Shown: piece after piece, positions 4,371 to 60,224 of the stretch
Layout of the letters: every line of letters starts with the position of its first letter
Numbering within the stretch: the first letter of the stretch is position 1
Source: an uncultured bacterium
Lineage (GTDB): Bacteria; Babelota; Babeliae; Babelales; Babelaceae
Assembly (NCBI GenBank): GCA_963722385.1
Contig: CAVRKK010000002.1
Span: 160,001 to 224,000, forward strand
Length of the DNA stretch: 64,000 bases
Reading direction: 5' to 3'
Notes under the pieces: model-generated
What the model saw: only the letters and a program-made list of their open reading frames with translations
Told to the model about the DNA's origin: nothing
Database searches by the model: none
Made by a program: the position numbers and the translations under genes

Positions 4371-4398
4371 TTGGCAAATTTTAAATTTTAGCTATAAT
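4371..4398 (+). promoter_or_regulatory. sigma70-like promoter upstream of the AAA ATPase
   Basis: TTGGCA-N16-TATAAT; near-identical copy at 14412-14439. Confidence 0.6.
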
Positions 4399-4468: not shown

Positions 4469-5959
4469 ATGAGACACCCACGAGGCTTTGCTTTCTTAAG
4501 CTTAGTGCTTAGCTTCTTCTGCGTAGCACTTTCTGCCAATCAAGAATTTATTCGATTTGACGAGCATGGCCACTATGCCGGCCTCTCCGACTACGCTAAA
4601 AATCTTATCGCTCAATCACGAGATACGTTACGACGACGCAAAGAAGTATTCAGCAAAAAATTCAAGCAATTTGATGCTATTTATCATGCAGCCCATGTCA
4701 ATCGCCTCGCCCGCGGAAATATGTTTCTTTTTGGGCCACCGGGCGGTGCAAAATCAGCATTCTCAAGCTGGCTTTTTAGTCATGAGCTTGAGCCTGCCTT
4801 CAAGCTTCAGATGCACCAGATGATGACCGAGCAGGCTTTTGTGGGCGGCCAGAATATGAATAAGGCACGCGAAGGCCTTTTTGAAATCAACACACAGGGA
4901 AGCCTTGTTGATTTTAAGGTTGCCTTAGTTGATGAGCTTGATAAAGGTAATCCAGCAGCTTTGGCTGCGTTATTGAGCTTGCTCAACGAGCGCGAAGTAC
5001 TTATCGGTAATAAGGCCGTCAAGGCAAAGCTTGAGACGCTTCTTTCGACGAGTAATGCCAACCGCTACGAGATTTTTGAGCAATTTGCCGAAAACGGCAT
5101 GCGCTCAACGGCAGCTGCCTTACTAAATAGGTTTACCACCTCGGCCTTTGTTCCTAATTGGCTTGCCAAAGCTGACCAAGCAGCCATCGACCAGGAATAC
5201 CTCGCTTCATTTGATACAGTTTTTAATCGCGCCGATGGCGAAACTACGGTTGCCGATGAAAAGTTAACGCTTGATTGGGAAGCCCTCCGCAAATTAGCAT
5301 ATTACCTTTTGCGTCCTAACGAGGAATTTTTCAGCGTTTCACGCGAGTTTGTCGACGCCCTCCGTGCAAAAACTATCGAGGCAGTCCAGGAGAAGGTCTA
5401 TGAAACCTCAGAAGATACTCTGCCCTACTTCCCGACAGCTGAATTTACCGAGCGCCTCAGGCAACGAATACATGAAATAATCATTATGTCAGTGTTTCTT
5501 GATTTCTTGACCTCGCGCGTTGCTGATGATATCCCAAGCTTGGAAAATGCGCTCAAGCTCCTTCCTCATCACCGCTTTGAAATAAGTCCGCTTTCTCTCT
5601 GGCGAGCGTACTTAAGCATAACAACCGTAACAGCAGGCAAGGTAGCTCTTCGCTACCCTACAAAAGATGCTGCACAAGATCTCTCGATTGATTTTGGCTC
5701 CGTATTCCGCCAAAAATCAGGCGTTACGGCAAAACCTACCTACAAGGCAAAAGATAAGCGAGAAGAGCAAGAAATCATCTACGCCCTCGAGGAACAAGAT
5801 CGATTCAACCGCCTCTTCGTAACAACCATGAATAACCACAAGCAAGTGCTTGAGGATTCCGCCTCTTTTGGGGGCATGTTCTCTTGTCTGCTTGGCGACT
5901 GCGTTATTAACAAAAACTTACAAGATGTAGAACGACTTCTGATGGCGTTTGGCTCATAA
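4469..5959 (+). CDS. RavA/MoxR-like AAA+ ATPase with N-terminal signal peptide
   Basis: Walker A GPPGGAKS, Walker B LVDELDKG followed by AALAALLSLLNER (RavA-like), sensor STSN, ALLNRF arginine finger; N-terminus MRHPRGFAFLSLVLSFFCVALSA. Confidence 0.85.
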   Translation: MRHPRGFAFLSLVLSFFCVALSANQEFIRFDEHGHYAGLSDYAKNLIAQSRDTLRRRKEVFSKKFKQFDAIYHAAHVNRLARGNMFLFGPPGGAKSAFSSWLFSHELEPAFKLQMHQMMTEQAFVGGQNMNKAREGLFEINTQGSLVDFKVALVDELDKGNPAALAALLSLLNEREVLIGNKAVKAKLETLLSTSNANRYEIFEQFAENGMRSTAAALLNRFTTSAFVPNWLAKADQAAIDQEYLASFDTVFNRADGETTVADEKLTLDWEALRKLAYYLLRPNEEFFSVSREFVDALRAKTIEAVQEKVYETSEDTLPYFPTAEFTERLRQRIHEIIIMSVFLDFLTSRVADDIPSLENALKLLPHHRFEISPLSLWRAYLSITTVTAGKVALRYPTKDAAQDLSIDFGSVFRQKSGVTAKPTYKAKDKREEQEIIYALEEQDRFNRLFVTTMNNHKQVLEDSASFGGMFSCLLGDCVINKNLQDVERLLMAFGS

Positions 5960-5983
5960 CACGCGCAAAACGTTAAATAAGCA

Positions 5984-6020
5984 AAAACGCCTGCCGTATT
6001 AATTAAGCGGCAGGCGTTTT
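5984..6020 (+). terminator. Intrinsic terminator-like hairpin after the AAA gene
   Basis: AAAACGCCTGCCG / CGGCAGGCGTTTT inverted repeat. Confidence 0.7.
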
Positions 6021-6066
6021 GTTGCTCCCGAGGCCTCTTCGTTCTTTTGCTGCCCCTTGATTTTGC

Positions 6067-6094
6067 TTGTCTATTATTAAATTTCAGATATAAT
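6067..6094 (+). promoter_or_regulatory. sigma70-like promoter upstream of the transglutaminase-VWA gene
   Basis: TTGTCT-N16-TATAAT. Confidence 0.5.
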
Positions 6095-6150
6095 AGTTTA
6101 TGTATATTATTTTATTGAGCTCCTTATTGAAGATGTAATGAAAGAGTTCC

Positions 6151-9100
6151 ATGAAACTGATGCCCTTTCTCTTACTCCTTTTCTGCTTTAACTGCCTGGC
6201 ACCCGACATTGCTCCATTACCTGAGCAATGCTCTGATTACCAAAGCTTCGTTGAGCGCTTTAGCGCACTCAGCGCGTATTATGAAAAAGCTTTGGGGGTG
6301 TACAAAAATCCTTTTTTGTTCACCTTTACGACTGAAGAGGCAAACGCCATCTATAATTCTCTCCTTAGGCGCCCTAACGGCTTTTTCTGCGAGGAATCAT
6401 CGCTCTTTGCAATTCAAGAAGAAATCAAAACATCTAAAAATTATCGTATTGCCGACCTGAATAAATTACTTCTTGAAAAAATTATCGAGGATTCGCGGGA
6501 CGTTTTGGCGCGTAACGAAGCTTCTTTGCATGAACGCCAATCTCTTTTGATTGCCGTAAAAACGGCGCTTGAGTACTTAAGCCGATTCTATGAGTGTTAT
6601 GCCGAGCAGGTGTCTGATACGCAACAAAGCAAGAAGCAAGAAAGCGAGCAGGATGAGCCTGACTTCGATGAACCATCAAACGAATATACGCCATACACCA
6701 AAGATCTTTCGAAGCTTGAAAAGAAAAACACCAAGAAAATTGTTGCAGAGGTCCCTTTCAAGACCCCCGTCTTTGGTAACGTTATTTATTCCTTCATCGC
6801 GAGAAATCGCCCCTTGCAAACAAGCGCATTGCTCGATGAGAACATGCTGTTGCCAGCGGCAGTTACTGGTGAATATACCACGATGCTCGTGCGGACGTGT
6901 CCGAGCAAACAGTTTCAACTTTTACTACCTGCAGGATACGTACCGGCTCAAGGACAACTTGACGGCGCTATTATAAAACCTGATGGCAAAGGCTCTTATC
7001 GTGTGCAGCTTGAGCGCGATATTGAGCAATTTACCGTCCCGTTAAAAAAGCGCATAGGCGATTTGTCTGACTTTCAAAAAGAGCTGTATACAAGGCCGGT
7101 TGGCTTTGCTCTTGAGGAGTGGCCCGATGATATTCAGGCTAACATCATCCATAAGTTTAGCCCCGCAGAGCATAGCGCTGCAGAAATTGCCCAGGCAATT
7201 GTTAAGCATTTTGGCGAGCATTATACCTATAGCATGAAAGCGCAGCCTGAAACCGACCCGATCGACGCCCTTAAGGCGCGGTCATTTCAATGTGATATGG
7301 CTGCTTACAGCATGGCAAGCTTGCTGCGCGATGTTTTTGCTATTCCTGCCCGCATCGTGGCTGGCTATAGCGCTCAGAGAAAAACCAATAAAAGCTTACT
7401 CGTTTTGCCGAACACCGGCCATGCTTGGGTTGAAGTGTTTCACGATGGTGAATGGCATACCTATGACCCAACGCCACCAGGCGGCCCCGATGATGCTGAA
7501 GAAACGGAAGCCTCGGATGACAACCAGAGCCGCACCCAAGAGCAAAGCGCGGTACGAGAGTGGCAACCTGCGACAAATATAACTGAGCATACGCAAGATA
7601 ACCAAAAGCCAGATGACCAACCTCAGACAACTGACGACGAATTTATTTTTCCTGAATTGGCTAAAGTGCTTGAAGGGATCGACTTTTCTACCTTCACGGA
7701 CATGAACGTTTTAAGAAAGCATATTTTAAAAACCCTGCTCAGAGAACTCCTCAATCCACTGTTCAATTCAGAAGAAAGCTCCCACAAACTTAACTTATTT
7801 AAAAGCCTTTTAACCAAATTTACGCCAAAAGACGATCTGGTCTTTCAAGCACTATTGCTTCATAAAGAGCCACACGACCGGCTCCTTAATTGGCTTAAAG
7901 ATATCGAGATGAGGCTGTTTGCACGTGATATCAATCTTACCTATCAGGATCTTGCAAGAATTAGCCGTATTTTAAGCACGTATCAAAAAGTAGCTGAGAA
8001 TGACGTGCCCAGCGCTCTTATCGATCAGATTGTTCACAAGCTCCAGATGGCGCTCAGCGAGCTCTTGCCGCTCAAGGATGCCGATGCATGGGCAATGGCT
8101 TTAGCAGAGGACTTTAAGAAACAATCACCTGCCTTGCTCTGGAAAATGTTGCAGCGGGACTACAGCTTGACGGCGGTCGGTCCTAATCCTGAAACGATCG
8201 CCTTTGCGCATGACGTTGAAGATGGTAAGCACAATGACAAGAGGCTTATTAATGAACTTTATGACTATACCAACTTTATTCTTAACGCCGACACGCGCAA
8301 GGGCAGTACAGAAGTAAAAACGTGGCTCCGCGACCAGCGCAAACCTGGGCTTGATGTTTTGCCGCTACAAAGAATCGATGACTGGCGACGCGGCATCTTT
8401 ACCCGCCATGACCTCGACCCGTTTGAGAACATTGCAGGTGGCTATGCGTACTTGCTGGCCAAGCGAAAGAAAGTTACCTTGCCTACCGAAAAAAACAAGC
8501 AAGAGACTGAGCGGATAACGATCGTCGGCTTTGATACATCAGGTAGCATGTCAGGTAATAATGCTGAATTTCAGGCAGGGCTTATTGCTGCTTTTGTTTG
8601 CCGAGCACTCAATGACGTGTCACCTTCAGGTCGCCAGCGCCACCGCGTATTATTGGTACCTTTTGATGATACGGTAAAGTCGCCTATCAAAGTGTCAACC
8701 ACGCAGGACGCGCTGAATCTTATTAGGGACCACCGAGAGCTCTTGGCCAATACGGGAGGAGGCACTGATATCCAAGCGTTCCTCTTGCAGGCCATCAAGC
8801 TGATCGCGGATGCACAGGATCAAAAGAATCCATTTGACATCGCCAATATCATCCTTATGACAGATGGGCAATCGCCGCTCGATTATGAAGAGCTCAAGCG
8901 CGCTCGCCAGTCGATACATCGAAGCACCCCTCTTCAAACTATGTTTATTGCTATAGGCGACACCAATCCCGAGCTTATCAAGTTTGCGACTGAATCGCAA
9001 AAATTAGGGGCACAAGAAGGCTCATACAAAGAATTTTTGGGCCATGAAATTGATACGATTCTTAACCGAACACATAAAGTAGATCGTGGCGCCTATAACG

Positions 9101-9489
9101 ATTACTTTTATAGCTCAAAATCCGCTGAGCAGATCCCTTTTAAAACGCGCGAATATATTCACGGTGCGCATCAAATGGCAAGCACGCTGGCTCTCTACCT
9201 CCAGCAAGAATCAGCTCACGGCACCAACTATCGTGAGTTCATAGAGCCGCTTAAAATACCCCATGCAAAAGAGCTCTATTCAAAAAGAAGCCTAGAGAAC
9301 TGGATCCACGAAGTGCGACAAATGCTCGCCTACCATAAGGGTTTTCACGATGAGCGCATATTGAGCCTTGTTTTGTATAGCTTGATGCAAAACTTTGAAA
9401 AGCTGGCTGGCCTAAAGTTTTCTGACTTAAACCATTACGAAACCGAGCAATTAATACATCTGCTGGAAACTCCACTTGCTGAGGCTTAG
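6151..9489 (+). CDS. Signal peptide + transglutaminase-like domain + acidic linker + VWA (MIDAS) domain protein
   Basis: FQCDMAA..IPARIVAGY..GHAWVEV..W.TYDPTP (Cys-His-Asp triad); GFDTSGSMSG, GGGTDI, ILMTDG MIDAS; MKLMPFLLLLFCFNCLA N-terminus. Confidence 0.85.
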   Translation: MKLMPFLLLLFCFNCLAPDIAPLPEQCSDYQSFVERFSALSAYYEKALGVYKNPFLFTFTTEEANAIYNSLLRRPNGFFCEESSLFAIQEEIKTSKNYRIADLNKLLLEKIIEDSRDVLARNEASLHERQSLLIAVKTALEYLSRFYECYAEQVSDTQQSKKQESEQDEPDFDEPSNEYTPYTKDLSKLEKKNTKKIVAEVPFKTPVFGNVIYSFIARNRPLQTSALLDENMLLPAAVTGEYTTMLVRTCPSKQFQLLLPAGYVPAQGQLDGAIIKPDGKGSYRVQLERDIEQFTVPLKKRIGDLSDFQKELYTRPVGFALEEWPDDIQANIIHKFSPAEHSAAEIAQAIVKHFGEHYTYSMKAQPETDPIDALKARSFQCDMAAYSMASLLRDVFAIPARIVAGYSAQRKTNKSLLVLPNTGHAWVEVFHDGEWHTYDPTPPGGPDDAEETEASDDNQSRTQEQSAVREWQPATNITEHTQDNQKPDDQPQTTDDEFIFPELAKVLEGIDFSTFTDMNVLRKHILKTLLRELLNPLFNSEESSHKLNLFKSLLTKFTPKDDLVFQALLLHKEPHDRLLNWLKDIEMRLFARDINLTYQDLARISRILSTYQKVAENDVPSALIDQIVHKLQMALSELLPLKDADAWAMALAEDFKKQSPALLWKMLQRDYSLTAVGPNPETIAFAHDVEDGKHNDKRLINELYDYTNFILNADTRKGSTEVKTWLRDQRKPGLDVLPLQRIDDWRRGIFTRHDLDPFENIAGGYAYLLAKRKKVTLPTEKNKQETERITIVGFDTSGSMSGNNAEFQAGLIAAFVCRALNDVSPSGRQRHRVLLVPFDDTVKSPIKVSTTQDALNLIRDHRELLANTGGGTDIQAFLLQAIKLIADAQDQKNPFDIANIILMTDGQSPLDYEELKRARQSIHRSTPLQTMFIAIGDTNPELIKFATESQKLGAQEGSYKEFLGHEIDTILNRTHKVDRGAYNDYFYSSKSAEQIPFKTREYIHGAHQMASTLALYLQQESAHGTNYREFIEPLKIPHAKELYSKRSLENWIHEVRQMLAYHKGFHDERILSLVLYSLMQNFEKLAGLKFSDLNHYETEQLIHLLETPLAEA

Positions 9490-9493
9490 TCTC

Positions 9494-11740
9494 ATGAAAG
9501 AAAATAGATTACAGACTTTTTTATGCGTGGGAATCATCGCTTGTTTGGTTGGTATATCGCCCCTTTCTGGTACCGACAATACGCGGCAAGATAATAGGCC
9601 TAGGGCCATGCTCATCGCCTATTTTGATAATCTTATTGCTAAAAATATCATTAATATTGCTGAGCTCAAAAACCTGCATGAGCGTGATCACTTGATTAAT
9701 CCTATAGATGCTGCTCAATCAAGTGCCCATTATGTGCACGCAAAGCAGCTTGACCAGATGCTGAGCCAGGTTAAGAAGCATAAGCAGCTTGATCTAGACA
9801 CCCTTAAAATATGGGTAGTCCAGAAGATTAAAGAACTAGAAAATCAAGCTTCTACACGGGAACACATACATGAAAAAACGACCGCTCTCACGTATCCCTT
9901 AAGTTTTGTTGCACTTCCCGAAGGGACCTATAGAAGCCAACTTGACCAACGTGAATTTATTATTGAGTCTGGTATTGAGATACAAGAAACTCCCGTTACC
10001 CAGTACCAATGGGCAAGCATTATGGGCGATAACCCCGGGCATTTTTCAAGTGGTCTGCAAACACAAGAAATAGTAATCAATGGCAAAAAAACAAAGATGC
10101 AAGCCAACTGGCCGATAGAATCCGTTTCTTATGCTCAGGTGCGAGAATTTATCAATAAGCTTAATGAGCACGATTCAGAATATAGGTACGATCTACCATC
10201 TGTTCAGGAATACGAAGCATTCTTACAAGCAAGCTTGGGCAAAGATTGGCTAAAACAATTACCGCATCTTACTTCTGCGCAAACTACGCATGATGCAAGA
10301 AGTGGCTTTTATGGTGAGCTTAACAAGCAACGTGTCTGGGGAATTATTGGCAACGTTTGGCAATTTACGAGAGATATGGTAATGCTCAACGAAGATACCC
10401 AAGGGTTTCTCGTTTTTGGTGGCTCATACGCTACTAACAGCGCACTTTCTTGTGAGCTGTTAAGGCCGGTACTGAATGGAAAAAATAGTATAGGCAACAT
10501 ACTTGGCTTCAGGCTTGTTCGCTCTAAGAAGTGGGTACCCGAAAAAGAAGCAAAAGTATACGACAACATCGTCTGGGATGAACACGTTATTGAGCAAGAT
10601 CCCCATTGGCATTGGCACCGTAATGGAATATTTGAAGGACCTTTATTCTATGATGACATAATCGAATTCATGCTCAAAAATCGGCAACAATATCCTTTGG
10701 TAACCCGGCGGACCCTTGGGGCTTTAGAACCAGAAAACCATATAAAGCCTAGTCTAACCCGGTTGGTAAATCTTTATGGAATTGGTATACGAGACCTAAC
10801 TCCTCTGAGCTACCTGATTAACCTTGAAGAATTAGTGCTTGGGGAGAATGAGGTATACAATATACGACCTCTTGCTAAACTTGTTCACCTCAAGCTTCTA
10901 GATCTTTCTGAAAATCATATAGAAAATATTGAGCCACTTGCTCATTTAACCAAATTGCTCACCCTTAATCTTGACGACAATAGAATCAAGAATATCGATG
11001 CTCTTAAAGATCTTAGTTCTTTAGAGAACCTAAATCTTGACAATAATAGGATCGACAATATTGAGGCCCTTAAAAATTTAACTCACTTAAAAAGTTTAAC
11101 GCTTAATAAGAATCAGATTAAAAACATTACTCCGCTCCATGACGTTATTCAACTCGAATATTTATCTTTTGCCGATAATCACGTAGCCAATATCGAACCA
11201 CTCAAGGCTTTAACGAATCTCAGAACCCTTTACCTTGCTCGTAATCAAATTCGCGATATTAAGGCACTGGGCAACCTCACGAAACTTAATACACTTTATC
11301 TTAATAGTAACTACCTTCAAAATATTGATATTCTTGAAAAACTAACCAATCTTGAAGGATTGTATCTCCAACATAACGCTTTAACAGAGGTAAAACCGCT
11401 CAAAGGGTTAACAGACCTTTATGAATTATTTCTTGATGACAATGAAATAAAAGATATTGAACCTTTAGCAAATTTGCAGAACCTCGATTCTCTCAGTCTT
11501 TCTCATAATCAGCTTAAGCATGTCACGGGTGTAGATCAAATGACTGATCTCTCAGAGCTCTATCTTGATGGTAATCCTTTAGAAAATCTTACAGGATTTA
11601 ATAATTTAACGAGTGATGCAAGTTTTCAACTCTATCTTGACGAAGAACAAATTGATAAATTTGATGCTCTTGCGTTTTTTAAAAATATTAGCCACGATAT
11701 TAAAGTGATAGGGGTACCTAATGGACCTGAGGACCAATAA
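9494..11740 (+). CDS. Signal peptide + FGE-sulfatase/SUMF1-like domain + internalin-like LRR protein (copy 1)
   Basis: EIQETPVTQYQW..MGDNP, PIESVSY, YDLPS..EYE, GNVWQF, GGSY, LGFRLVR; then 22-aa LxxLxLxxNxIxxIxPL repeats. Confidence 0.85.
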   Translation: MKENRLQTFLCVGIIACLVGISPLSGTDNTRQDNRPRAMLIAYFDNLIAKNIINIAELKNLHERDHLINPIDAAQSSAHYVHAKQLDQMLSQVKKHKQLDLDTLKIWVVQKIKELENQASTREHIHEKTTALTYPLSFVALPEGTYRSQLDQREFIIESGIEIQETPVTQYQWASIMGDNPGHFSSGLQTQEIVINGKKTKMQANWPIESVSYAQVREFINKLNEHDSEYRYDLPSVQEYEAFLQASLGKDWLKQLPHLTSAQTTHDARSGFYGELNKQRVWGIIGNVWQFTRDMVMLNEDTQGFLVFGGSYATNSALSCELLRPVLNGKNSIGNILGFRLVRSKKWVPEKEAKVYDNIVWDEHVIEQDPHWHWHRNGIFEGPLFYDDIIEFMLKNRQQYPLVTRRTLGALEPENHIKPSLTRLVNLYGIGIRDLTPLSYLINLEELVLGENEVYNIRPLAKLVHLKLLDLSENHIENIEPLAHLTKLLTLNLDDNRIKNIDALKDLSSLENLNLDNNRIDNIEALKNLTHLKSLTLNKNQIKNITPLHDVIQLEYLSFADNHVANIEPLKALTNLRTLYLARNQIRDIKALGNLTKLNTLYLNSNYLQNIDILEKLTNLEGLYLQHNALTEVKPLKGLTDLYELFLDDNEIKDIEPLANLQNLDSLSLSHNQLKHVTGVDQMTDLSELYLDGNPLENLTGFNNLTSDASFQLYLDEEQIDKFDALAFFKNISHDIKVIGVPNGPEDQ

Positions 11741-11753
11741 AATTTTAGTTTCT

Positions 11754-13537
11754 ATGTCACGCTACCTTGGAAAAGTGCTTTTTATATTCGCTCTTATTTT
11801 CATAAGCTTTAGCGCACGAGCAGAGAGCGTTAATGCAAATAAAGCAACCGATCTTTTAATCGCTTATTTCGATACACTGATTGCTAAAAATATTATGAAT
11901 GCGGACCATCTCAAAAATATTGGTGAGCATCACGACTTAATCAACCCTCTGACTGAAACCGATGCGGCTCAGTCAAGTACTCATCATGTTTACGCTAAAC
12001 AGCTTGACCACATTATTAACCACCTGAAATGCAATGATGTACTTGACCACAAGACATTTAAAGCCTGGGTGGTTTCGAAAATCGAGGAACTCGAAACCCA
12101 CCTATCAACGCGCGAATTAATCCACGAGGAGACTATTAATACCCACTATCCCTTACGCTTTGTTGCTCTTCCTGCAGGCACGTATACCAGCCAACTCGAT
12201 CACAAAGAGTTTATCATAAGCGATGGCATCGAAATTCAAGACAGCCCTGTCACTCAATATCAATGGGCAAGCATTATGGGCAAGAATCATGCCCATTTTT
12301 CTCAGGGCAAAGATTCCTATCAAATAGCACTGAACAGCGAGAGCGTCAAGATACAAGCTGACTACCCCATTGAGTCTGTTTCTTATGCGCAAATACGCGA
12401 ATTTATCAACAAACTCAATGAACAAGACCCTCAATACCTCTATGATTTACTCTCAATTCAGGAATATGAAGCATTCTTACAAGCAAGCTTTGGCAGTGCT
12501 TGGGCTGAATACTTAATCAAAGTCGATAAGAACGAACAGCAACCTCATGCTGTGACCGCGCAATTTTATGAGATGAGTGGCCAACGAGTGCGCGACCTTC
12601 TCGGCAATATCTGGCAATTTACGCAAGACAAAGTACACCTCGGTAACAATATTAATGCATGCGTTGTTTTCGGCTCTTCATACGCGACCAAAAAAGATGC
12701 TTTAGGAACATTGAGAGATATACTGAGGCCGATTATCTATGAAGATAGCATTGGCAAAGACGTTGGATTCAGGCTTATTCGGTATAAAAAAGGTACATCA
12801 CAATGAATAGCAAGAATATATTCAAAAGATGAATTGAACTGGGATAGGCAAGCAGTTGAACAAGATGCAAGTTGGCAGTGGCATCACGACTTCGGCTTCG
12901 CGGGCCTTTGCTTTTACGACGAAGCTTTGCATTTTATGCTGGACAGGAAAAGGTATTATAAACCAGATGTACAACAAACACTCGATTGCTTATATTACAA
13001 GAGTAGACAATTTCGATGCGATAAAACTCATTGCTTCACCGCACTTTCTCTTTACGATAAATACATAACAAACCTCGAGCCACTGGCCTATCTTCAAGAT
13101 CTTTGGTTCCTCGACCTTGAAAGCAATCGTGGCATACGCGATATTCGCCCCTTGAAAAACCTCACGAAGCTTCGCGAACTGTTTCTTGCCTACTCATATG
13201 ATATTGACGACATCAGACCGCTTGCTACTCTTATTAAGCTTGAAAAGCTATCGCTTCAACATAATAAAATAAGCAATATTGAACCGCTTGGTCATTTAAC
13301 AAATCTTAAAGAACTTGATCTTGCTCATAATCAGATCAGCAGTATTGAAAGCCTAGCTTCGCTGAAAGCTTTAAAAATTCTGAAGCTTTCCAGAACCCGC
13401 TCCAAGATATAATGCCCTTAGCCCACCTCACTAATCTTGAAGAGCTCAAGCTTGATCCTGATCAAATAAATCGATTTGACGCCAGATCATTTATCAAAAA
13501 CGTAAACCCTCATATTAAGCTCGTTGAGAGTTGGTGA
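11754..13537 (+). pseudogene. FGE-sulfatase + LRR paralog (copy 2), disrupted
   Basis: ORFs 11721-12806 and 12834-13412 share a frame, separated by TGA 12804-12806; a frameshift near 13390 leads to the family C-terminus (NPLQDIMPL..LDPDQINRFDARSFIKNVNPHI) ending at 13537. Confidence 0.8.
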
Positions 13538-13554
13538 TAAGAATTGCCCGAAGC

Positions 13555-14256
13555 TCAAGCTTTTGCCGATGCTAAAAGCTTAATCTCGAGCGTCGTCACT
13601 TTAGGTAGCACCTTGTTCGTCACAGCAATGCCTTTGGAGCCAAATGATGTATCAAAGCTTCCATCAGAATTAAAACGTGCAATAGCAAGAAAATCGTTGC
13701 TAGAACCGGCGATTAAGATTTTGTCATCATGCTGAATAATGACATCATCAGCTAAGCACCACTCATGGTGAGCAGCAAATTTGCCAACCACCATACCGGG
13801 AATTTCGCCATTTTTGAATGATTTATCCGCGGTGCCATCAGCATTATAACGAGCGATTACAAAATAGCGGCTTTTGTAGTTATCGGCTTTTTTAAATGCA
13901 TAACCAACTACAATAATTTTCCCATCTTTTTGCGTAACTTTTTGGCGCACGCGAGGAAGGGTATAACCTGATTCAAAAGCATCAGGCACAACGAAGCCGA
14001 AGTCACTAAATGATCGCGTAATAGGAATAAGGGTATTCCAATGTATAACCGCAAAGGCTTGAGGGCGTGATGTTAAAATTTTCCCATCTTTACCAATTAG
14101 TATTGAACAGGTAAAATTGCTGGTTGCCGAAGCAGAAGCATCTTTCAATGCCAAGCTCGAATCAAGCGCGCTGCCAAAGTTAGAGATAGCAAAATATAAA
14201 AGCACCATTATTAAAGCATAGATGTTAAAATTGTGTTGATCATAATATTGATTCAT
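13555..14256 (-). CDS. Delta-60 repeat (beta-propeller) protein, probably truncated
   Basis: QKDGKIIVVG..FVIARYNADGTADKSF and QHDDKILIAG..AIARFNSDGSFDTSFG repeats; hydrophobic N-terminal segment. Confidence 0.7.
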   Translation of the reverse strand: MNQYYDQHNFNIYALIMVLLYFAISNFGSALDSSLALKDASASATSNFTCSILIGKDGKILTSRPQAFAVIHWNTLIPITRSFSDFGFVVPDAFESGYTLPRVRQKVTQKDGKIIVVGYAFKKADNYKSRYFVIARYNADGTADKSFKNGEIPGMVVGKFAAHHEWCLADDVIIQHDDKILIAGSSNDFLAIARFNSDGSFDTSFGSKGIAVTNKVLPKVTTLEIKLLASAKA

Positions 14257-14411
14257 AATATTCCCTTGCTGGAGTCGACGATGCTAACCAGTTTATACAC
14301 TCAAAGATTTTAATCAACAAGCGGCAAAGGCGTGCCCTGCGACCTCCTCGATCTGAAATTATTCGCTATTTCGAATATTTAATTGCTTTGCCATTATTGC
14401 TTATATTTCCG

Positions 14412-14439
14412 TTGGCAAATTTTCAATTTTTGCTATAAT
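14412..14439 (+). promoter_or_regulatory. Duplicated promoter upstream of FGE-LRR copy 3
   Basis: GTTGGCAAATTTT(c/a)AATTTT(t/a)GCTATAATAAGAATA matches 4370-4405. Confidence 0.6.
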
Positions 14440-14535
14440 AAGAATATATCTTTTACTGTATTAGATTTAAGGCTGGCTCAGCTTAGGAGAGGCCGAGTAC
14501 TGCACCTCGTTTTACCATCCTGATGCAGAGGAGGC

Positions 14536-16503
14536 ATGAGAGATATGCTATCTAGAATCAACGCTTTAAAAGCAATACTTGCGTTATTTATATTGCCAAC
14601 CCTTCTATTAGCACAAGAGCAACCGGACCAAGCTACGAGCCTATTGGTCGCCTATTTCGACAATCTTGTTTCACAAAATATCATCGCCGTAGATCATCTC
14701 AAGCATATCCACGAACATGAAGAATTAACCAACCCCCTCACTGAAGCTGACGCTCTTACCTCAAGCACTCATTACGTTTACTGGAAGCAGCTTGAACAAC
14801 TTATTAACCAGCTCAAGAGCCATCATTGCATTGATAAAAAGAGCATTAAATTATGGGCGGAACACAAAATTGCAGAAGTCGAGAACCAAGCTGCAACCCA
14901 AGAACTGGTACGCGAAAAAACAGCCAATATTTACCAGCCCCTACGCTTTGTTGGCCTTCCTGAAGGCATGTATACGAGCCAGCTTGACCAAGCTGAATTC
15001 GTCATCGAGTCTGGTGTGGAAATACAAGAAACACCTGTCACTCAACACCAATGGGCAACTATTATGAGCGATAACCCCGCGTATTTTTTCTATGGCTTTG
15101 ACTCAGAAGAAATAGAGATCCATGGTAAAAAAATTAAGCTGGTCGCTCATAATCCAGTAGAATCTGTTTCTTATAGTCAAGTACGCCAATTTATCAATAA
15201 GCTTAACGAGCAAGATACTGAGTATACGTATGATTTACCATCGATACAGGAATATGAAGCCTTGCTTCAGATAAGCCTTGGCAACGATTGGCTACATTAC
15301 CTACCAGCATTTACAAGTACGGAGCATACGCAACCGGTAATTGCAAAAGCTTGCGCGCTTGATAACCACCACCGATTAGGAAGTCTTGTTGGCAATGTTT
15401 GGCAATTTACCCGAGATATGGCAAACCTGAGCCATGATACTGAGAGACACCTTGTTTTTGGAGGCTCTTATGCAACGGTACTAGACTCCATAAAAGACAT
15501 AAATAGCTTACTGAGGCCATTATTTTGGAACAGCATAAGCACCGGCGTTGGATTTAGGCTTGCCCGCTATAAAAAGAGCGCGGAGGCAAAAGAAGCAAAA
15601 ACCTACCATGATATCAAATGGGATAAGCAGATTGCTCACCAGGACCCAAGCTGGTATTGGCATACCAACGATATCTTTGAAGGCCCTCTCTGTTATGCTG
15701 AAATGGCATCGTTCATGCTTATTAACAAGCAACATTATCCTGAAGCAACACAACGTACGCTTAATGCTCTCGAGGAAAATGTCGATAATTTTTATAGCGA
15801 AATTCAGGAGCTCCCCGAGATTTTTCTCAGCAAAAAGCAAATAGATGACCTTACGCCCTTGAGAGGGTTGGTTGCTCTTGAAAGACTCTTCCTTGATACC
15901 AACCAAATAAACGATATAAGTGCCCTTAGCAAATTGATTAACCTCAAGGGCCTCGATCTTTCAAGCAATCAAATAGAAAATACCAAGCCGATCGGAAATT
16001 TACCAAGTTTGCAATGGGTCAACCTCGCTCATAATCGTATTCGTCATATTAAAGCCCTTTCTGGGCTGATCAACCTGAAAAAACTCAATCTTTCTCAGAA
16101 TTATATTTCTGATATTAGTTTTCTTGAGAAATTGCCTAATTTGTCACAGCTTTATCTTAATATAAATGCTTTGAAAGATTTGACGCCACTTAAAAATCTA
16201 ACCAACCTAAACGTGCTTTATCTTACTAACAATGATATCGATGATATTAGCCCGCTTAGAAATTTAATTAATCTTAAGGGTCTCGCTCTTTTTGATAATC
16301 AGATTCAGGATATTACTCCTTTAGAAAATATGAAAAATTTGGAGTGGCTTCATTTAAACGGCAATCCCATAGATGATATAGCACCACTTACAGAACTTAC
16401 TAACCTTCGACACATTTATCTTGATAAAAAGCAAATCAAAAAATTTAATGCTCATCATTTTTTTAGAAATATTAACCCAGATATCGACGTGCATGAAGTG
16501 TAG
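14536..16503 (+). CDS. Signal peptide + FGE-sulfatase-like + LRR protein (copy 3)
   Basis: Same motifs as copy 1 with fewer LRRs. Confidence 0.85.
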   Translation: MRDMLSRINALKAILALFILPTLLLAQEQPDQATSLLVAYFDNLVSQNIIAVDHLKHIHEHEELTNPLTEADALTSSTHYVYWKQLEQLINQLKSHHCIDKKSIKLWAEHKIAEVENQAATQELVREKTANIYQPLRFVGLPEGMYTSQLDQAEFVIESGVEIQETPVTQHQWATIMSDNPAYFFYGFDSEEIEIHGKKIKLVAHNPVESVSYSQVRQFINKLNEQDTEYTYDLPSIQEYEALLQISLGNDWLHYLPAFTSTEHTQPVIAKACALDNHHRLGSLVGNVWQFTRDMANLSHDTERHLVFGGSYATVLDSIKDINSLLRPLFWNSISTGVGFRLARYKKSAEAKEAKTYHDIKWDKQIAHQDPSWYWHTNDIFEGPLCYAEMASFMLINKQHYPEATQRTLNALEENVDNFYSEIQELPEIFLSKKQIDDLTPLRGLVALERLFLDTNQINDISALSKLINLKGLDLSSNQIENTKPIGNLPSLQWVNLAHNRIRHIKALSGLINLKKLNLSQNYISDISFLEKLPNLSQLYLNINALKDLTPLKNLTNLNVLYLTNNDIDDISPLRNLINLKGLALFDNQIQDITPLENMKNLEWLHLNGNPIDDIAPLTELTNLRHIYLDKKQIKKFNAHHFFRNINPDIDVHEV

Positions 16504-16509
16504 GACGTT

Positions 16510-18756
16510 ATGAATCACCTATCTATTACTGCTAATATCCACCTATTTTTTCACCAGTTTCTAAGAGTAGTGCTCGTTATATTTCTATTTCCGAGCTTTG
16601 CCGTAGGTATACAACGAGAGTCCAATACCACAAACCTCTTGATCGCTTATTTTGATAACCTTGTTTCAAAAAATATCATCGTCGTAGATCATCTCAAGCA
16701 TATCTACGAACATGAAGAATTAGTCAACCCCCTCACGGAAGCTGAGGCTCTTACCTCAAGCACCCATTACGTTTACTGGAAGCAGCTTGAGCAACTGATT
16801 AACCAACTGAAGCGCCATGGCTACCTTGAAAGCAACAGCATTAAAATATGGGCGGAACATAAAATTACGGAGCTCGAAAACCGGGGCTCCCTCAGTGAAC
16901 ATATACATGAAAAGACAGCCAATATTTATTATCCCTTGAGTTTTGCCGCTCTTCCCGAAGGGACCTATAGAAGCCAACTTGATCAAAAAGAATTTGTTAT
17001 TGAACTTGGTGTTGAGATTCAAGAAACGCCGGTGACCCAATATCAATGGGCGAGCGTTATGGGTAACAACCTCGCGCATTTTTCAGATGGGTCGGAATCG
17101 CAAGAAATAGTCATCAAAGGCAATAAAATTAAGATGCGCGCTAACTGGCCAGTGGAATCTATTTCTTATGCTCAGGTGCGCGAATTTATAAATAAGCTTA
17201 ATGAGCATGATGCAGACTATATTTACGATTTACCCTCTCTTCAGGAATATGAAGCATTATTACAAGCAGCCTTGGGTCAAGACTGGCCAAGCCGATTACT
17301 TCAACATACTCCCGCAGAAAATATCCATGACGTAAAATTGGGGCCCTACGGGGAACTTCACCAGCAACGCATTTGGAATATTTTTGGCAACGTTTGGCAA
17401 TTTACCAGAGATAGAGTAATGCTCAATGAAAATACCCAAGGGTTTCTTGTTTTTGGTGGCTCGTATACCACCAAGAGAGATACTGCTTCATTTCATAACG
17501 AATTGATAAGACCGGTCCTGAATGGAGAATATAGCGTAGGTAACACACTGGGATTTAGACTTGTTCGCTACAAAAGGGATACGTCAGAAAAAGAAGCAAA
17601 GGTATATGATGGTATTGTCTGGCACAAACACGCTGATCATCATCAAAACTGGCAATGGCATCGTAATGACGTTTTTGAAGGACCTTTATTTTACAATGAT
17701 ATAATCGAGTTCATACGTGAAAATAGGCAGTATTATTCTGACGCTATTCAGCATACGGTCGATTCTTTATACATTTCTAGCAAACCAAGCTACGTATTTT
17801 TGATATCTCTCCAAAACAAAAAGATACAAAATTTGACGCCTTTAAGTTGTTTTATCAAGCTTAAAGGCCTTGAGCTTGGTCGCAATCAAATACGAGATGT
17901 AAGTCCCCTTAGCACACTCACGAGCCTTAAGGAGCTTAATCTTTCAAATAATGAAATAGAAAATGTTAATCCCATCGGACGTTTATCAAATTTGCAAAAA
18001 CTCTTTCTCAAAGCTAATAAAATTAGAAATATCGGAGCTCTTACGGACCTTAGGCATATTGAGCGCTTGGATCTTACTGACAATGAAATAGAAGATATTC
18101 AAGGCATTGAAAAGTTAACGAATTTACGAGAACTAGTTATTCAGGAGAATAAGCTTAATAACATTGAGCCTTTAAGTAGCTTAATCCATCTTAAATATCT
18201 ATATCTTGATGACAATCAAATTACCACTATTGAACCTCTTGAAAATCTCGCAAGCCTAGAATGGCTTAGCCTTGGGCATAATCCAATTCGCTCTATTAAG
18301 GCGCTTCCATCTTTAAAACTTAGGATGCTCGATCTTCATAATACCTTTCTTAAGGAAATTAATTTTCTTAAAAAATTAACTAATCTTACGAATCTTAACC
18401 TTAATAACAATATGATAGCAGATGTAAAGCCACTCAAAAACCTTACTATGCTTGATAAACCTTCTCTTGGTCGCAACAAAATAAAAGATATTACCCCCCT
18501 TAAAAATTTAACTAATCTTCGGACTCTTTACCTTTCTCATAATCAAATTCGCGATGTTACTGCCTTAGAAAATCTGAAACACCTGGTCGAGCTTTCTTTA
18601 GACGGCAATCCTTTGGAAGATATAACACCACTTAAACAGCTTGCTAATCTTGAAGATATTTATCTTGATAAAGACCAAATCGAAAAATTTAATGCTCATG
18701 AGTTTTTCAAGAATAGCAATCCCGCTCTTGTGGTGCATGAGGTAGAGGAGATATAA
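16510..18756 (+). CDS. Signal peptide + FGE-sulfatase-like + LRR protein (copy 4)
   Basis: Same motifs as copy 1. Confidence 0.85.
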   Translation: MNHLSITANIHLFFHQFLRVVLVIFLFPSFAVGIQRESNTTNLLIAYFDNLVSKNIIVVDHLKHIYEHEELVNPLTEAEALTSSTHYVYWKQLEQLINQLKRHGYLESNSIKIWAEHKITELENRGSLSEHIHEKTANIYYPLSFAALPEGTYRSQLDQKEFVIELGVEIQETPVTQYQWASVMGNNLAHFSDGSESQEIVIKGNKIKMRANWPVESISYAQVREFINKLNEHDADYIYDLPSLQEYEALLQAALGQDWPSRLLQHTPAENIHDVKLGPYGELHQQRIWNIFGNVWQFTRDRVMLNENTQGFLVFGGSYTTKRDTASFHNELIRPVLNGEYSVGNTLGFRLVRYKRDTSEKEAKVYDGIVWHKHADHHQNWQWHRNDVFEGPLFYNDIIEFIRENRQYYSDAIQHTVDSLYISSKPSYVFLISLQNKKIQNLTPLSCFIKLKGLELGRNQIRDVSPLSTLTSLKELNLSNNEIENVNPIGRLSNLQKLFLKANKIRNIGALTDLRHIERLDLTDNEIEDIQGIEKLTNLRELVIQENKLNNIEPLSSLIHLKYLYLDDNQITTIEPLENLASLEWLSLGHNPIRSIKALPSLKLRMLDLHNTFLKEINFLKKLTNLTNLNLNNNMIADVKPLKNLTMLDKPSLGRNKIKDITPLKNLTNLRTLYLSHNQIRDVTALENLKHLVELSLDGNPLEDITPLKQLANLEDIYLDKDQIEKFNAHEFFKNSNPALVVHEVEEI

Positions 18757-18760
18757 GCAT

Positions 18761-18952
18761 ATGCTCAATAATTACTTATATTTTTCGATACTTTTTAACT
18801 GGCGCGCTGGCGATAGCAATTTTCCAATCAGCTATACTACAGCTCAAGCAGGCAACACAAGCAGAATATGCAGCAACTGATCTTTTGCTCGCCTATTTAA
18901 CGTAGAGCATCTTAAACGTCTGTATGAGCATGATAAATTAACGAACCCCTAG
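18761..18952 (+). pseudogene. Relic N-terminus of a fifth FGE-LRR paralog
   Basis: Broken frames encode ATDLLLAY and NVEHLKRLYEHDKLTNP, matching ATDLLIAY..NADHLKNIGEHHDLINP of copy 2. Confidence 0.7.
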
Positions 18953-19117: not shown

Positions 19118-20236
19118 ATGAAGTATATTTGGCAAAATAAACGCTGGCCACATTTCGAATACGATATTACCGGCATACAAGATATACTCTATTGCTATGC
19201 TATTACGACGGGTTCTTTGACAGCTAGTATGAGCCACCTGCCTAATCACTTAAAGATCGATGCAACCATCGATTTACTGGTATCAGAGGCTATGAAAACA
19301 TCAGAGATTGAGGGAGAAAACCTTGACCAAGAAGATGTGCGGTCATCTCTAAGAAACCAGTTAGGCCTTACAAATAATACTCTGCTTATTAAAGATCCCC
19401 GAGCAATAGGCATAGCTCAACTCATGATTGCTGTTAGAAAAAACTATGATCGGTTGCTTACTAAGGAAGAATTATTTTCATGGCACGCTATGGTGCTACC
19501 TAAGCCTTTGAGTGGAGGCATGGAAGTAGGTCATTGGCGGACGGGTAATGATCCCATGCAGATAGTCTCTGGCACTATTGGCCGAGAAACAATTCATTAT
19601 GAAGCTCCTCCAAGTTCAAGGCTTGATAATGAAATGGAACAATTCATCGCTTGGTTTAATGCAACAGACCCACATAAAAGTAACCTAAATATGCCAGGCC
19701 CCGTAAGGGCTGCTATTGCCCACCTTTATTTTGAATGTATACATCCATTTGTCGATGGCAACGGACGGGTAGGCCGAGCTCTTGCAGAAAAAGCTCTATC
19801 CCAAGAGCTACAACGGCCTGTTTTGTTTAGTCTTTCTACCACCATACAGAAATATAAAAAAGAGTATTATCAGCAGCTATCTATTGCCAGCAAAGACGAC
19901 ATGAATATTACTGGGTGGGTCGAGTACTTTGTAAAAACTATTTATTCTGCCCTTCTAGATTCTCAAGAACAGATTGTTATGGTAGTCCAAAAAGCTCAAT
20001 TTTGGAATCACTACGCATCAAAATTAAATGATCGCCAATCAAAAGTAGTAGCTCGAATGTTTAAAGAAGGGACAGCTGGTTTTAAAGGTGGTATAAATGC
20101 CCATAAATACATGGCGATAGCGCACTGTTCGAAAGCTACCGCAACAAGGGATCTTGCTGAATTGGTAGCTTATGGGTGCTTAGAAAGATTACAAAGTGGC
20201 GGTAGAAGCACAAGCTATAAAATTAAGCTCCCGTAA
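19118..20236 (+). CDS. Fic family protein (DUF4172-type N-terminus, C-terminal HTH)
   Basis: YIWQ..WPHF N-terminus, HPFVDGNGRVGR Fic motif, SKATATRDLAELV..GGRSTSY. Confidence 0.93.
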   Translation: MKYIWQNKRWPHFEYDITGIQDILYCYAITTGSLTASMSHLPNHLKIDATIDLLVSEAMKTSEIEGENLDQEDVRSSLRNQLGLTNNTLLIKDPRAIGIAQLMIAVRKNYDRLLTKEELFSWHAMVLPKPLSGGMEVGHWRTGNDPMQIVSGTIGRETIHYEAPPSSRLDNEMEQFIAWFNATDPHKSNLNMPGPVRAAIAHLYFECIHPFVDGNGRVGRALAEKALSQELQRPVLFSLSTTIQKYKKEYYQQLSIASKDDMNITGWVEYFVKTIYSALLDSQEQIVMVVQKAQFWNHYASKLNDRQSKVVARMFKEGTAGFKGGINAHKYMAIAHCSKATATRDLAELVAYGCLERLQSGGRSTSYKIKLP

Positions 20237-20259: not shown

Positions 20260-20667
20260 TTATCGCAATGATATTCTATATGATGGATCAATTGCTTTAA
20301 GCAACTGTTCAAGCTTATCGAAACCCGGCACATGCTTTCCTTGCTCGTATTGGGCATAATCATTAATTGACTTAGCATTTAGGCGTGTTTGAACATCCTC
20401 TAATTTCATTTTATTTTTTAGTCTTTGCCTTTTAAGAATCAAGCCCATTAACTTTTTGTCGTCATTTGACTCTACAAATACATCTCTTCCTGCTATAGTA
20501 GAATCAATCAAGAATGCTGGGTCATTTACCAGTGCTTCTATAGCATCCTTGACCATTTCAGGGATCTCTTCTTTGCTCTCTGCTTGAACCATGAGATTTA
20601 AAAGAGGAATTTTAGCGAGCCAGAATTGGTCCTTTCTGCTCTTCCATACGTTGCCTGATACTATCAT
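20260..20667 (-). CDS. HicB-like antitoxin with Xre-type HTH
   Basis: WLAKIPLLNLMVQAES..EMVKDAI (HicB-like) followed by YAQYEQGKHVPGFDKLEQLL HTH. Confidence 0.7.
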   Translation of the reverse strand: MIVSGNVWKSRKDQFWLAKIPLLNLMVQAESKEEIPEMVKDAIEALVNDPAFLIDSTIAGRDVFVESNDDKKLMGLILKRQRLKNKMKLEDVQTRLNAKSINDYAQYEQGKHVPGFDKLEQLLKAIDPSYRISLR

Positions 20668-58784: not shown

Positions 58785-60224
58785 TCAATTTCTGACAAAG
58801 CTCTGGAGATACTCAAGAAGCTCCTGCCTATTCATGACCTCAGTTGATCTACTCAAAAGCTTGCCCTCGTGCATAACAAGCATGGTAGGAACCATGGTTA
58901 CTTCAAACTTGCGTGAAAGTTCATCGGAAGTGCTGATATCTGTCTTGAGGAACTTAATCGTATCGCCTAAAGTTTCAGCTACTGACTCAATGACAGGCAA
59001 CATCGCTACACATGAGGTGCAGTAAGGCGCATAAAAATCTATAACAACGGGTCGCTGTTCAGCACCAAGGTGATCGGTAAGCTGTTCCAGCGTCTGCACC
59101 GATTCTAACGTATGGTGACGAATAATTTGCGGGTCGTAGTAACGGCCCGGGAGCTTTTCAGACGGCTCCAAAGTTTCTGATAAAAATGCATCGGCTTCAA
59201 GGGCCGCTTTAATGCCTTCGCCGGCAGCAACACCCGCTTGGCGATAGCGCGGATCGGCTACATCCCCAGCAGCAAATACTCCTGGCTGGGAAGCTGCTTG
59301 GCTACGCCCTTTAAGCTCAATATACCCGAGTTTGTCGGTTGCCAAGGCCCCTTGAAAAATTTTGGTGTTGGGATCATGGCCTATCGCCAGGAAGACTCCT
59401 TGCACCGCAAGAGAGCTCGATTTGCCGAGCTCTTTGATCTCCATACCTGTTACCTGGGCCCCATCTCCTTGTATACCGATGCTCTGGGTATTATAAAGTA
59501 TCTGTATGCGAGGTTGCTCATGGAGCCTTTGCTGCATAATAGCAGATGCCCGCATAGTGCTTGCTCGTACCAATAATGTTACTGATCGTGCAAAACGGGA
59601 CAACTCAAGCGCCTGTTCTGCTGCTGAGTCCCCGCCTCCTATGACAGCTACATCGCGGTCTTTATAAAATGGCGCATCGCACACCGCACATGTGCTCACC
59701 CCACGGCCCCAATATTCTTGCTCACCCGGAATATTGGTTGTTTTTGGCGTGGCGCCCGTAGCAATAATTACTGTATAGGCATATATCTTAGTGCCATTAT
59801 CTGTCTCCAACTCATGAGGATATCCCTTATCGAAATCTGCGCGAACTATAGTTGATGAATCAAATCGCGCGCCAAAATGACCGGCCTGCTTTTCAAAATT
59901 TTCCATAATGTCGGGACCGCGCTGCGTGCCAACTCCTGGCATATTTTCAACATCAGACGTACTCGTTAACTGGCCCCCCGGCATTGGGCCTTTAAAAACA
60001 ACCGTGTAACGATTCATCCGGGCTGCATAGAGGGCTGCACTCAAACCAGCCGGTCCTGAGCCTATAACAGCAACTTCAACAATATTGTTTTTTTCTAAGT
60101 CCCTTTGATCAAGGAAGATTGCTTGAAATTCAGATGGCGGCCAGATCGGCCAGAGAGAATACCATAACGCTCCCGTAATAACGAGTATACAACAGGCAAG
60201 AAATGGCCAGGGTTTAAAAGGCAT
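58785..60224 (-). CDS. trxB: Thioredoxin reductase with N-terminal TM and fused C-terminal thioredoxin domain
   Basis: IGSGPAG, GGQL, CAVCD, GGGDSA, AAGDV; C-terminal DFYAPYCTSC..VPT. Confidence 0.9.
   Translation of the reverse strand: MPFKPWPFLACCILVITGALWYSLWPIWPPSEFQAIFLDQRDLEKNNIVEVAVIGSGPAGLSAALYAARMNRYTVVFKGPMPGGQLTSTSDVENMPGVGTQRGPDIMENFEKQAGHFGARFDSSTIVRADFDKGYPHELETDNGTKIYAYTVIIATGATPKTTNIPGEQEYWGRGVSTCAVCDAPFYKDRDVAVIGGGDSAAEQALELSRFARSVTLLVRASTMRASAIMQQRLHEQPRIQILYNTQSIGIQGDGAQVTGMEIKELGKSSSLAVQGVFLAIGHDPNTKIFQGALATDKLGYIELKGRSQAASQPGVFAAGDVADPRYRQAGVAAGEGIKAALEADAFLSETLEPSEKLPGRYYDPQIIRHHTLESVQTLEQLTDHLGAEQRPVVIDFYAPYCTSCVAMLPVIESVAETLGDTIKFLKTDISTSDELSRKFEVTMVPTMLVMHEGKLLSRSTEVMNRQELLEYLQSFVRN

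Follow-up and report, generated by a model that had tools for sequence, protein, structure and literature searches.

The AAA+ motors of bacteria are taken to be cytoplasmic, and several described systems pair a motor of the MoxR type with a partner that has a domain of the von Willebrand factor A (vWA) type. Sets of the MoxR-vWA-YebA kind have been proposed to unfold their targets with ATP and then cleave them (Zhang and Aravind 2012, PMC3495828). The ternary conflict systems, of which VMAP, iSTAND, FtsH, beta-propeller, iSTAND2 and TERNS3 types have been named, add a variable third component and are patchily distributed (Kaur 2020, PMC7159879; Kaur 2021, PMC8195603), and the same MoxR-vWA ternary grammar emerges from a further study (bioRxiv 10.1101/2023.09.22.558884). 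The RavA-ViaA and NorQ-NorD pairs (PMC9976466) are cytoplasmic, without an enzyme or an adaptor array; the Esr pathway of Actinomycetota (PMC13622651) joins MoxR, vWA, a transglutaminase and a divergent exported propeller sensor in inter-organism conflict; and in Babela massiliensis signal-peptide-bearing AAA-Ulp1 peptidase fusions have been proposed to act in the amoeba cytoplasm (PMC4378268). We analysed a window (the whole stretch of 64,000 nucleotides, assembly GCA_963722385.1, contig CAVRKK010000002.1, positions 160,001 to 224,000) from an uncultured bacterium of the Babelaceae, in which a RavA/MoxR-like ATPase gene, a fusion of a transglutaminase-like (TGL) core to a vWA domain, and an array of modular adaptors are linked, with intact motifs and leader-like N-termini throughout. 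The three kinds of protein very probably work together, and we see an even chance that they form an exported, adaptor-programmed, ATP-driven machine that remodels and cuts host or prey proteins. The genes are as follows.

4469..5959 (+): RavA/MoxR-clade AAA+ ATPase with a signal-peptide-like start, 496 residues (Pfam, PDB sequence search, motifs)
6151..9489 (+): TGL-vWA fusion with a signal-like start, 1112 residues (Pfam, motifs, structure model)
9494..11740 (+): adaptor 1, with signal-like start, N-domain (9596-9898), FGE/C-lectin-fold domain, linker and leucine-rich repeats (LRR)
11721..12806 (+): adaptor 2, with signal-like start, N-domain and FGE domain, closing on an in-frame stop
12834..13537 (+): adaptor 2 tail, with linker and LRR, frameshifted near 13390 in the assembly
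14536..16503 (+): adaptor 3, with signal-like start, N-domain (14629-14940), FGE domain, linker and a shorter LRR
16510..18756 (+): adaptor 4, with signal-like start, N-domain (16624-16935), FGE domain, linker and LRR
18762..18952 (+): relic adaptor, a hydrophobic leader and the beginning of an N-domain, in two frames (three-frame translation)

The open reading frame (ORF) list and Pfam agree with an earlier note on this DNA as to which genes lie where, and the ATG at 9494 bears out its observation that the first LRR gene starts 4 nt past the fusion stop. That note had also described a co-directional array; the system genes do all lie on the + strand, but an opposite-strand gene interrupts the array.

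The ATPase is matched best in Pfam by bpMoxR (E 1.9e-16), then by AAA_5, and its sole match among solved sequences, and the nearest, is RavA (PDB, E 5e-9). Walker A and B motifs, sensor and arginine finger are all present, as expected of a MoxR/RavA-related AAA+ protein; the residues that we take to represent the motifs, by the general AAA+ layout, are K95 in Walker A, D155/E156 in Walker B, N196, R221 and R329. Among 64 relatives the Walker B DE, N196 and R221 are kept in every one (64/64), R329 in 63 and the Walker A Lys in 62 (two truncated). The boundary of this family is sharp, with 64 matches at E<=1e-65 and the next at 3e-16 and weaker. It is not RavA proper: the RavA equivalog model gives 37.6 bits against a cut-off of 681, over residues 80-196 only, and about 120 residues align to RavA itself.

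The fusion matches Transglut_core and VWA in Pfam. Its N-terminal half runs from the signal-like start through a helical domain to a beta domain with the TGL core (C381-H424-D439) and an acidic disordered linker; its C-terminal half comprises a helical domain, a beta-hairpin insert, the vWA domain and C-terminal helices, with D795/S797/S799, T872 and D905 forming the MIDAS (an adhesion site dependent on a metal ion). Of 48 fusion relatives, 46 retain the TGL Cys, 47 the His and 46 the Asp, and each MIDAS residue is retained in 47, so that Pfam and residue conservation confirm the intact Cys-His-Asp core and MIDAS vWA that had been read in one protein. In the structure model (pLDDT 83.5, pTM 0.47) a long beta insert runs into the MIDAS strand and the region after the vWA is all-helical; at the level of secondary structure, the hairpin before the MIDAS strand recalls the "finger" proposed for NorD. 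No transmembrane segment was found beyond the leader, and there was no DUF58 or DUF3488 match in Pfam.

The locus resembles the MoxR-vWA-YebA/TgpA sets in placing a MoxR ATPase, a vWA and an active TGL of TgpA-matching fold in one neighbourhood. YebA, however, is a membrane protein with eight transmembrane segments and the vWA lies in a separate gene, whereas in this locus one soluble chain joins TGL and vWA, all parts have export-like signals, the ATPase is RavA-like and a variable adaptor family is added. An adjacent vWA protein with intact MIDAS is also what defines the MoxR/vWA chaperone pairs, and the partner in RavA-ViaA and NorQ-NorD likewise has an N-domain, a disordered linker and an intact-MIDAS vWA.

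The third component turned out differently from what had been expected. The earlier note had described FGE-LRR proteins, but the constant part is an undescribed helical N-domain of ~103 residues with an NPI motif, placed directly after the leader, and the LRR is a local add-on. The suggestion of interchangeable specificity subunits fared better, since to judge from their sequences the adaptors behave as swappable modules on this one N-domain. A full scan gave 538 N-domain clusters at 50% identity. Among 110 members picked from the best 150 for length >300, the cargo was FGE in 87, RCC1 in 9, LRR in 8 and ankyrin in 3, and PQQ-type propeller adaptors are found in two further loci (L070, L072). 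In one genome the N-domains of the propeller adaptors are 37-45% identical to those of its own FGE adaptors, and the propeller adaptors of a second genome are not among the six nearest to the propeller N-domains of the first. Such within-genome likeness across cargo is what a constant docking module would show if its cargo had been swapped.

The N-domain model folds confidently (pLDDT 88.4). Pfam gave no family common to more than two of 32 N-domains, a fold search with the model gave nothing at E<=0.001 (best Z 5.4, unrelated helical proteins) and a protein atlas search only scores under 0.8; these searches establish neither a new nor a known fold. As candidate relatives of the N-domain, both the helices that precede FGE in the double-ATPase fusions described below and the heads of neighbouring ankyrin and WD40 proteins were rejected by profile comparison (probability <1%).

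The FGE domains of the adaptors do not look like FGE enzymes, as the catalytic cysteines are not conserved (1-4 scattered Cys in five paralogs of the genome). The loop before their C-lectin GFR motif is 36% identical among the window paralogs, against 58% in the core. A diversity-generating retroelement (DGR) was considered as the source of this variation and rejected; the variable-region DNA matches only the paralogs, with no template repeat, and the sole reverse transcriptase match in the genome is a 141-codon fragment on another contig. The count of three intact FGE-LRR paralogs and one relic stands, the "broken" status of the fourth being uncertain. The in-frame stop of adaptor 2 sits exactly at the end of the FGE domain, and for this reason 11721-12806 may be a complete signal, N-domain and FGE form. 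This architecture exists intact elsewhere, and a sixth paralog in the same genome, FGE-only, stands alone at G000:C2 ~719.1-720.4 kb. The stop is absent from the one short-read contig across this place, which however contains a one-base gap itself, and the downstream frameshift is absent from another (each a single contig at depth 3-4). Adaptor 2 is either a short FGE-only form or the front part of a broken gene. Elsewhere, in L015:6681-13082 (G008), two transposase-like ORFs interrupt an adaptor array, and one adaptor, to judge from N-termini, is split around one of them.

The earlier note had also asked whether the three gene types occur together in other genomes, and a neighbourhood search found them across phyla. 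Searching a genome collection with the fusion yielded 10 loci, labelled Bdellovibrionales/Oligoflexia, Myxococcaceae/Deltaproteobacteria, Proteobacteria and, once, Altimarinota. The ATPase gene lies directly upstream in 10/10 and an N-domain gene is present in 9/10, the tenth contig stopping right after the fusion. Of 18 metagenome loci returned, 16 are family members (the weak L037 and L038 were left out as non-members); in 11 with informative downstream DNA the gene next to the ATPase encodes the vWA partner 10 times and an adaptor once. Cluster look-ups gave no cultured carrier. Carriers are scattered: 3/251 genomes in the phylum that the window comes from (this genome included), 16/401 in the Bdellovibrionota-type phylum of G068, 1/22 in the order of G062 and 5/38 in the class of G066. 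All 5 of the latter are 1.7-2.0 Mb with translocases, and in the same class 0/15 genomes of at least 4.5 Mb carry the system. Nine of the 16 Bdellovibrionota-type carriers have a sister form, with a tandem double ATPase where the whole gene is visible. Four double RavA-like ATPase loci were seen in context.

L065:5237-9484: double RavA-like ATPase
L068:8881-13077: double RavA-like ATPase
L066:9980-13060: double RavA-like ATPase
L067:3625-6623: double RavA-like ATPase

Each of the four carries a leader and lies beside a TGL-vWA gene; in two an FGE-type domain is fused C-terminally to the ATPase, which ties binder to motor, and in two an ankyrin gene follows.

This arrangement also invites comparison with the ternary conflict systems. 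Likenesses are the MoxR-vWA pair with a variable, patchily distributed third component, the FGE/FGS and propeller binders, the best Pfam match to bpMoxR, and a layout similar to that of iSTAND2 and TERNS3, where a separate effector gene headed by a helical vWA-L domain adjoins the vWA (PMC7159879, PMC8195603). The third genes scanned gave no Pfam match to VMAP, inactive STAND, FtsH or TERNS3, in a library that may not hold every model. The beta-propeller type has its propeller strictly C-terminal to the vWA, where our fusion ends in helices, and its P-loop, a weak criterion, often reads GXXXTAKS, where this ATPase family has GPPGGAKS/T. The carriers here are likely parasites or predators with small genomes rather than multicellular forms, and the ATPase has an export-like signal. 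As to the Esr pathway, its signal passes inward via a kinase and an FHA protein of the host bacterium; we saw no conserved kinase or FHA gene, and here the ATPase is predicted to be exported. The Babela AAA-Ulp1 proteins share with this set an AAA ATPase with a signal peptide and a cysteine peptidase, but form a single-chain, species-specific family with a C48 peptidase and without vWA or adaptors. On these grounds the set is neither RavA-ViaA proper nor of the YebA or beta-propeller type. It shares the MoxR-vWA ternary grammar, and its mode of action would be like the degradation proposed for MoxR-vWA-YebA.

The earlier note had not recognised the architecture as a described system. This needs qualifying, because both the coupling of MoxR, vWA and TGL (PMC3495828) and signal-bearing Babela AAA proteins (PMC4378268) have been described; the all-exported set of MoxR, TGL-vWA and adaptors was not found in the literature searched, which excluded most subscription papers and some supplements. 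The supplements of PMC7159879, as available, hold no TGL, RCC1 or Dependentiae entry, though perhaps not the figure source data, which could bear on novelty. What the locus adds is a variant in a translocase-bearing parasite, LRR-extended adaptors, a defined N-domain family, and forms with a double ATPase or with no TGL.

Export is predicted with a home-made heuristic for hydrophobic leaders, which cannot separate a cleaved signal from an anchor. All six main ORFs of the window pass it, in accord with the signal-peptide-like N-termini noted before, and have no further transmembrane segment. With 6/64 ATPases (truncated or unparsed) and 10/145 N-domain proteins set aside, it is passed by 48/58 full-length ATPases (52 with alternative starts), 43/45 full-length fusions and 113/135 N-domain proteins, against 144/3801 internal methionines (3.8%) and 0/3 RavA-like outgroup proteins. 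The leaders are short, with one hydrophobic stretch after basic residues, often an Ala-X-Ala-like end and no conservation of sequence, and going by these predictions the signal-like start is a family-wide trait across phyla. In the Bdellovibrionota-type loci (L005-L011, L065-L073) a Cys-x-x-hydrophobic-Leu/Phe motif stands right after the leader in 21/42 system proteins and 3/72 neighbours; it would fit an oxidising compartment and is possibly a shared sorting or disulfide signal. From such sequence features we judge it highly probable that the parts are exported.

The leaders might instead be uncleaved anchors or artefacts of start-site choice, belonging to a machine on the cytoplasmic side like RavA-ViaA or MoxR-vWA-YebA. 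To our knowledge, the characterised bacterial MoxR ATPases are all cytoplasmic. Some iSTAND systems have N-terminal transmembrane segments (PMC7159879), and the heuristic is blind to the difference between signal and anchor. We nevertheless regard this explanation as very improbable, given short, unconserved and often Ala-X-Ala-ended leaders in all three components across phyla and, in the Bdellovibrionota-type loci, a Cys motif that would fit an oxidising compartment.

Other ORFs with such leaders were encountered. An ABC1-type atypical kinase with a signal-like start lies directly after the adaptors in one locus (L006:16057-17946) and also looks exported and ATP-using. In the genome of the window (G000) several more proteins with P-loop motifs have signal-like starts (among 28/109 heuristic matches, some of them false positives). 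Within the window, 58785-60224 (-) encodes a fusion of thioredoxin reductase and thioredoxin that begins with a hydrophobic leader despite its dependence on NADPH, and 47893-53754 (-) a protein of 1953 residues with a leader, a possible membrane hairpin near residues 230-260 and no NCBIfam match.

The organism itself can be placed by analogy. In its genome, 93% complete at 1.6 Mb, three ATP/ADP translocase genes stand in tandem, a type II-like cluster includes two secretins, and 26 of the 29 ankyrin proteins have signal-like starts. Because translocases, secretins and leader-bearing ankyrins match the descriptions of Babela and Chromulinavorax (PMC4378268, PMC6561590), we infer a Babeliota-like protist parasite, likely intracellular.

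We picture the machine as follows. All parts would leave the cytoplasm via Sec, as the heuristic predicts, and onward passage would likely be through the secretin-type system of the genome. The ATPase would form a hexamer, whose pore the vWA protein may plug with the beta-hairpin before the MIDAS strand, by analogy with NorQ/NorD. Adaptors would dock on this core by their constant N-domain and pick targets by a variable FGE/C-lectin loop, LRR, propeller or ankyrin; the MIDAS would grip an acidic patch, on which ATP hydrolysis would pull, and the Cys-His-Asp site would cleave the target or, less likely, deamidate or cross-link it. Assembly would likely take place in an ATP-containing compartment of the host or prey. 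That the machine acts beyond the organism's own envelope seems to us fairly probable, and for peptidase or amidase action of the TGL on foreign targets we put the odds only slightly above even.

Several observations weigh against this picture. To carry a hexameric ATPase and a partner of 1100 residues across two or three membranes is demanding. In this genome 541/1042 ORFs pass the heuristic, 409 of them (~39%) without further membrane segments, and with so high an export-like background a signal alone is weak evidence. One relative (P0047) has a degenerate MIDAS, and two metagenome loci (L028, L029) have a vWA core without the TGL domain; the lack of TGL there and the standing of the LRR as a local add-on weaken the earlier interpretation. 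N-domain divergence follows that of all three core parts (rho 0.61 for the ATPase, 0.63 for the TGL part, 0.66 for the vWA core), among kin that are not independent, and near-equal values of this kind are what shared descent alone would produce. The closest fold to the fusion by Foldseek of the model, ahead of vWA domains, is the periplasmic domain of TgpA (E 6e-9), an envelope enzyme, and in the Esr pathway the TGL has been proposed to anchor a surface sensor (PMC13622651). The place of assembly is also less clear than the earlier note, with its ATP-containing host compartment, had it: a translocase is present in 10 of the 29 distinct carrier genomes checked, and the other 19 show no match (incomplete genomes can miss genes), so that a eukaryotic cytosol is excluded as the general site. 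Finally, an ATP-importing parasite passes ATP through its periplasm and may hold it there. A periplasm free of ATP, the premise of the earlier note, may thus not exist where inner-membrane translocases import host ATP, and the reasoning by which the machine has to get into the host is weakened.

One of the TGL-less partners deserves a separate description. The protein at L029:7479-10529 has GEGQQP repeats and a Cys-rich tail, which we take to resemble a cyanovirin-type lectin, with no Pfam match.

Some of these points would suit assembly of the envelope or surface, in which the variable proteins are adhesins or sensors, the TGL cross-links them to the surface, and ATPase and vWA act as chaperones in an ATP-fed periplasm. 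The best fold match is to a periplasmic domain, a Sec signal by itself takes a protein no further than the periplasm, the window LRRs are internalin-like, and translocase-bearing parasites would have to pass ATP through that compartment; in the Esr pathway, moreover, the sensor is released upon deletion of the TGL gene (PMC13622651). Possible ATP in the periplasm and the high export-like background lend such a role some plausibility. It has to contend with the lack of a membrane anchor in any part, unlike YebA/TgpA, with adaptors that have no long stalks, with a TGL-less variant (L028) that retains its adaptors, and with Bdellovibrionota-type carriers most of which have no translocase, and we hold it to be unlikely.

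A general link between the system and ATP/ADP translocases was itself considered and rejected for the Bdellovibrionota-type carriers: 0/16 have one, in a sample where 2/401 genomes overall do. For these carriers the ATP source under the exported-machine reading would have to be the contents of the prey. ATP transport in Bdellovibrio was reportedly the subject of a paper in 1986.

The patchy presence of the system (3/251, 16/401, 1/22) raises another explanation, an exported conflict system against competitors in a shared host or prey (viruses, other endosymbionts, predators), in which, after the manner of the MoxR-vWA ternary systems that counter invaders, adaptors sense foreign proteins and the core executes. 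In the ATPase tree (three outgroup proteins; L008 a very long branch; the first Walker A anchor pattern for trimming failing in five rows) we rely only on the starred clade of five rows, where, with 98/99 support, the window ATPase is joined by those of two genomes of the same family, of a metagenome contig and of a Pseudomonadota record; adaptors in this clade, wherever seen, are all of the FGE-LRR type. This union with a Pseudomonadota record, the quick turnover of adaptors by duplication, decay and insertion-like genes, and the place of FGE as a common binder of ternary systems (PMC7159879) would all suit conflict. Yet an arms race with the host fits the same patchiness, the DGR template repeat is missing, and the loci read hold no nuclease, TIR, STAND, VMAP or peptide-signal partner; we therefore think a conflict role distinctly improbable. 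One scan with a single ATPase query found no viral source.

Around the system genes the window holds three further features.

4371..4398 (+): predicted sigma-70-like promoter site, 11/12 consensus matches
5980..6094 (+): GC-rich intergenic hairpin, then a promoter-like site (sequence inspection and consensus match)
13555..14256 (-): DUF5122 beta-propeller gene, unrelated, inside the array

The hairpin, a strong one, lies in the gap of 191 nt between the ATPase and fusion genes, together with the promoter-like site (6067-6094 by consensus match). The stretch with the 4371 promoter has a near copy at 14405-14449 (45 nt, 89% identical), upstream of the 14536 gene. Related stretches of the DUF5122 family occur at about seven further places in the genome besides 13555-14256. 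Directly past the array lie a Fic/DUF4172 gene (19118-20236, +) and a gene for a helix-turn-helix protein (20260-20667, -). In locus L003 a gene with a Fic-family-like beginning lies upstream of the system, and L003:2-5953 (-) encodes a 1984-residue protein with an inverse-autotransporter beta domain and a SecA-like DEAD module.

The system is broader than first seen, being shared with scattered other bacteria that are likely parasitic or predatory. A tentative and somewhat doubtful proposal is that such parasites and predators send a whole protease, powered by ATP and programmed by adaptors, into the cell they inhabit. It would consist of a motor, a vWA plug that bears the peptidase and a library of substrate receptors, with the N-domain in the role that an F-box has in SCF ligases. 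If true, the exported protease would use the ATP of its victim with no need of host degradation machinery, and ATP-driven protein remodelling would be carried into another cell, or else into a periplasm fed with ATP. The N-domain offers a new marker for such systems and, should it serve for docking, might be used to program specificity. Two questions become testable on soluble proteins: whether MoxR-vWA-TGL sets are ATP-dependent proteases, a proposal dating from 2012, and by what means parasitic and predatory lineages that are uncultured manipulate their hosts.

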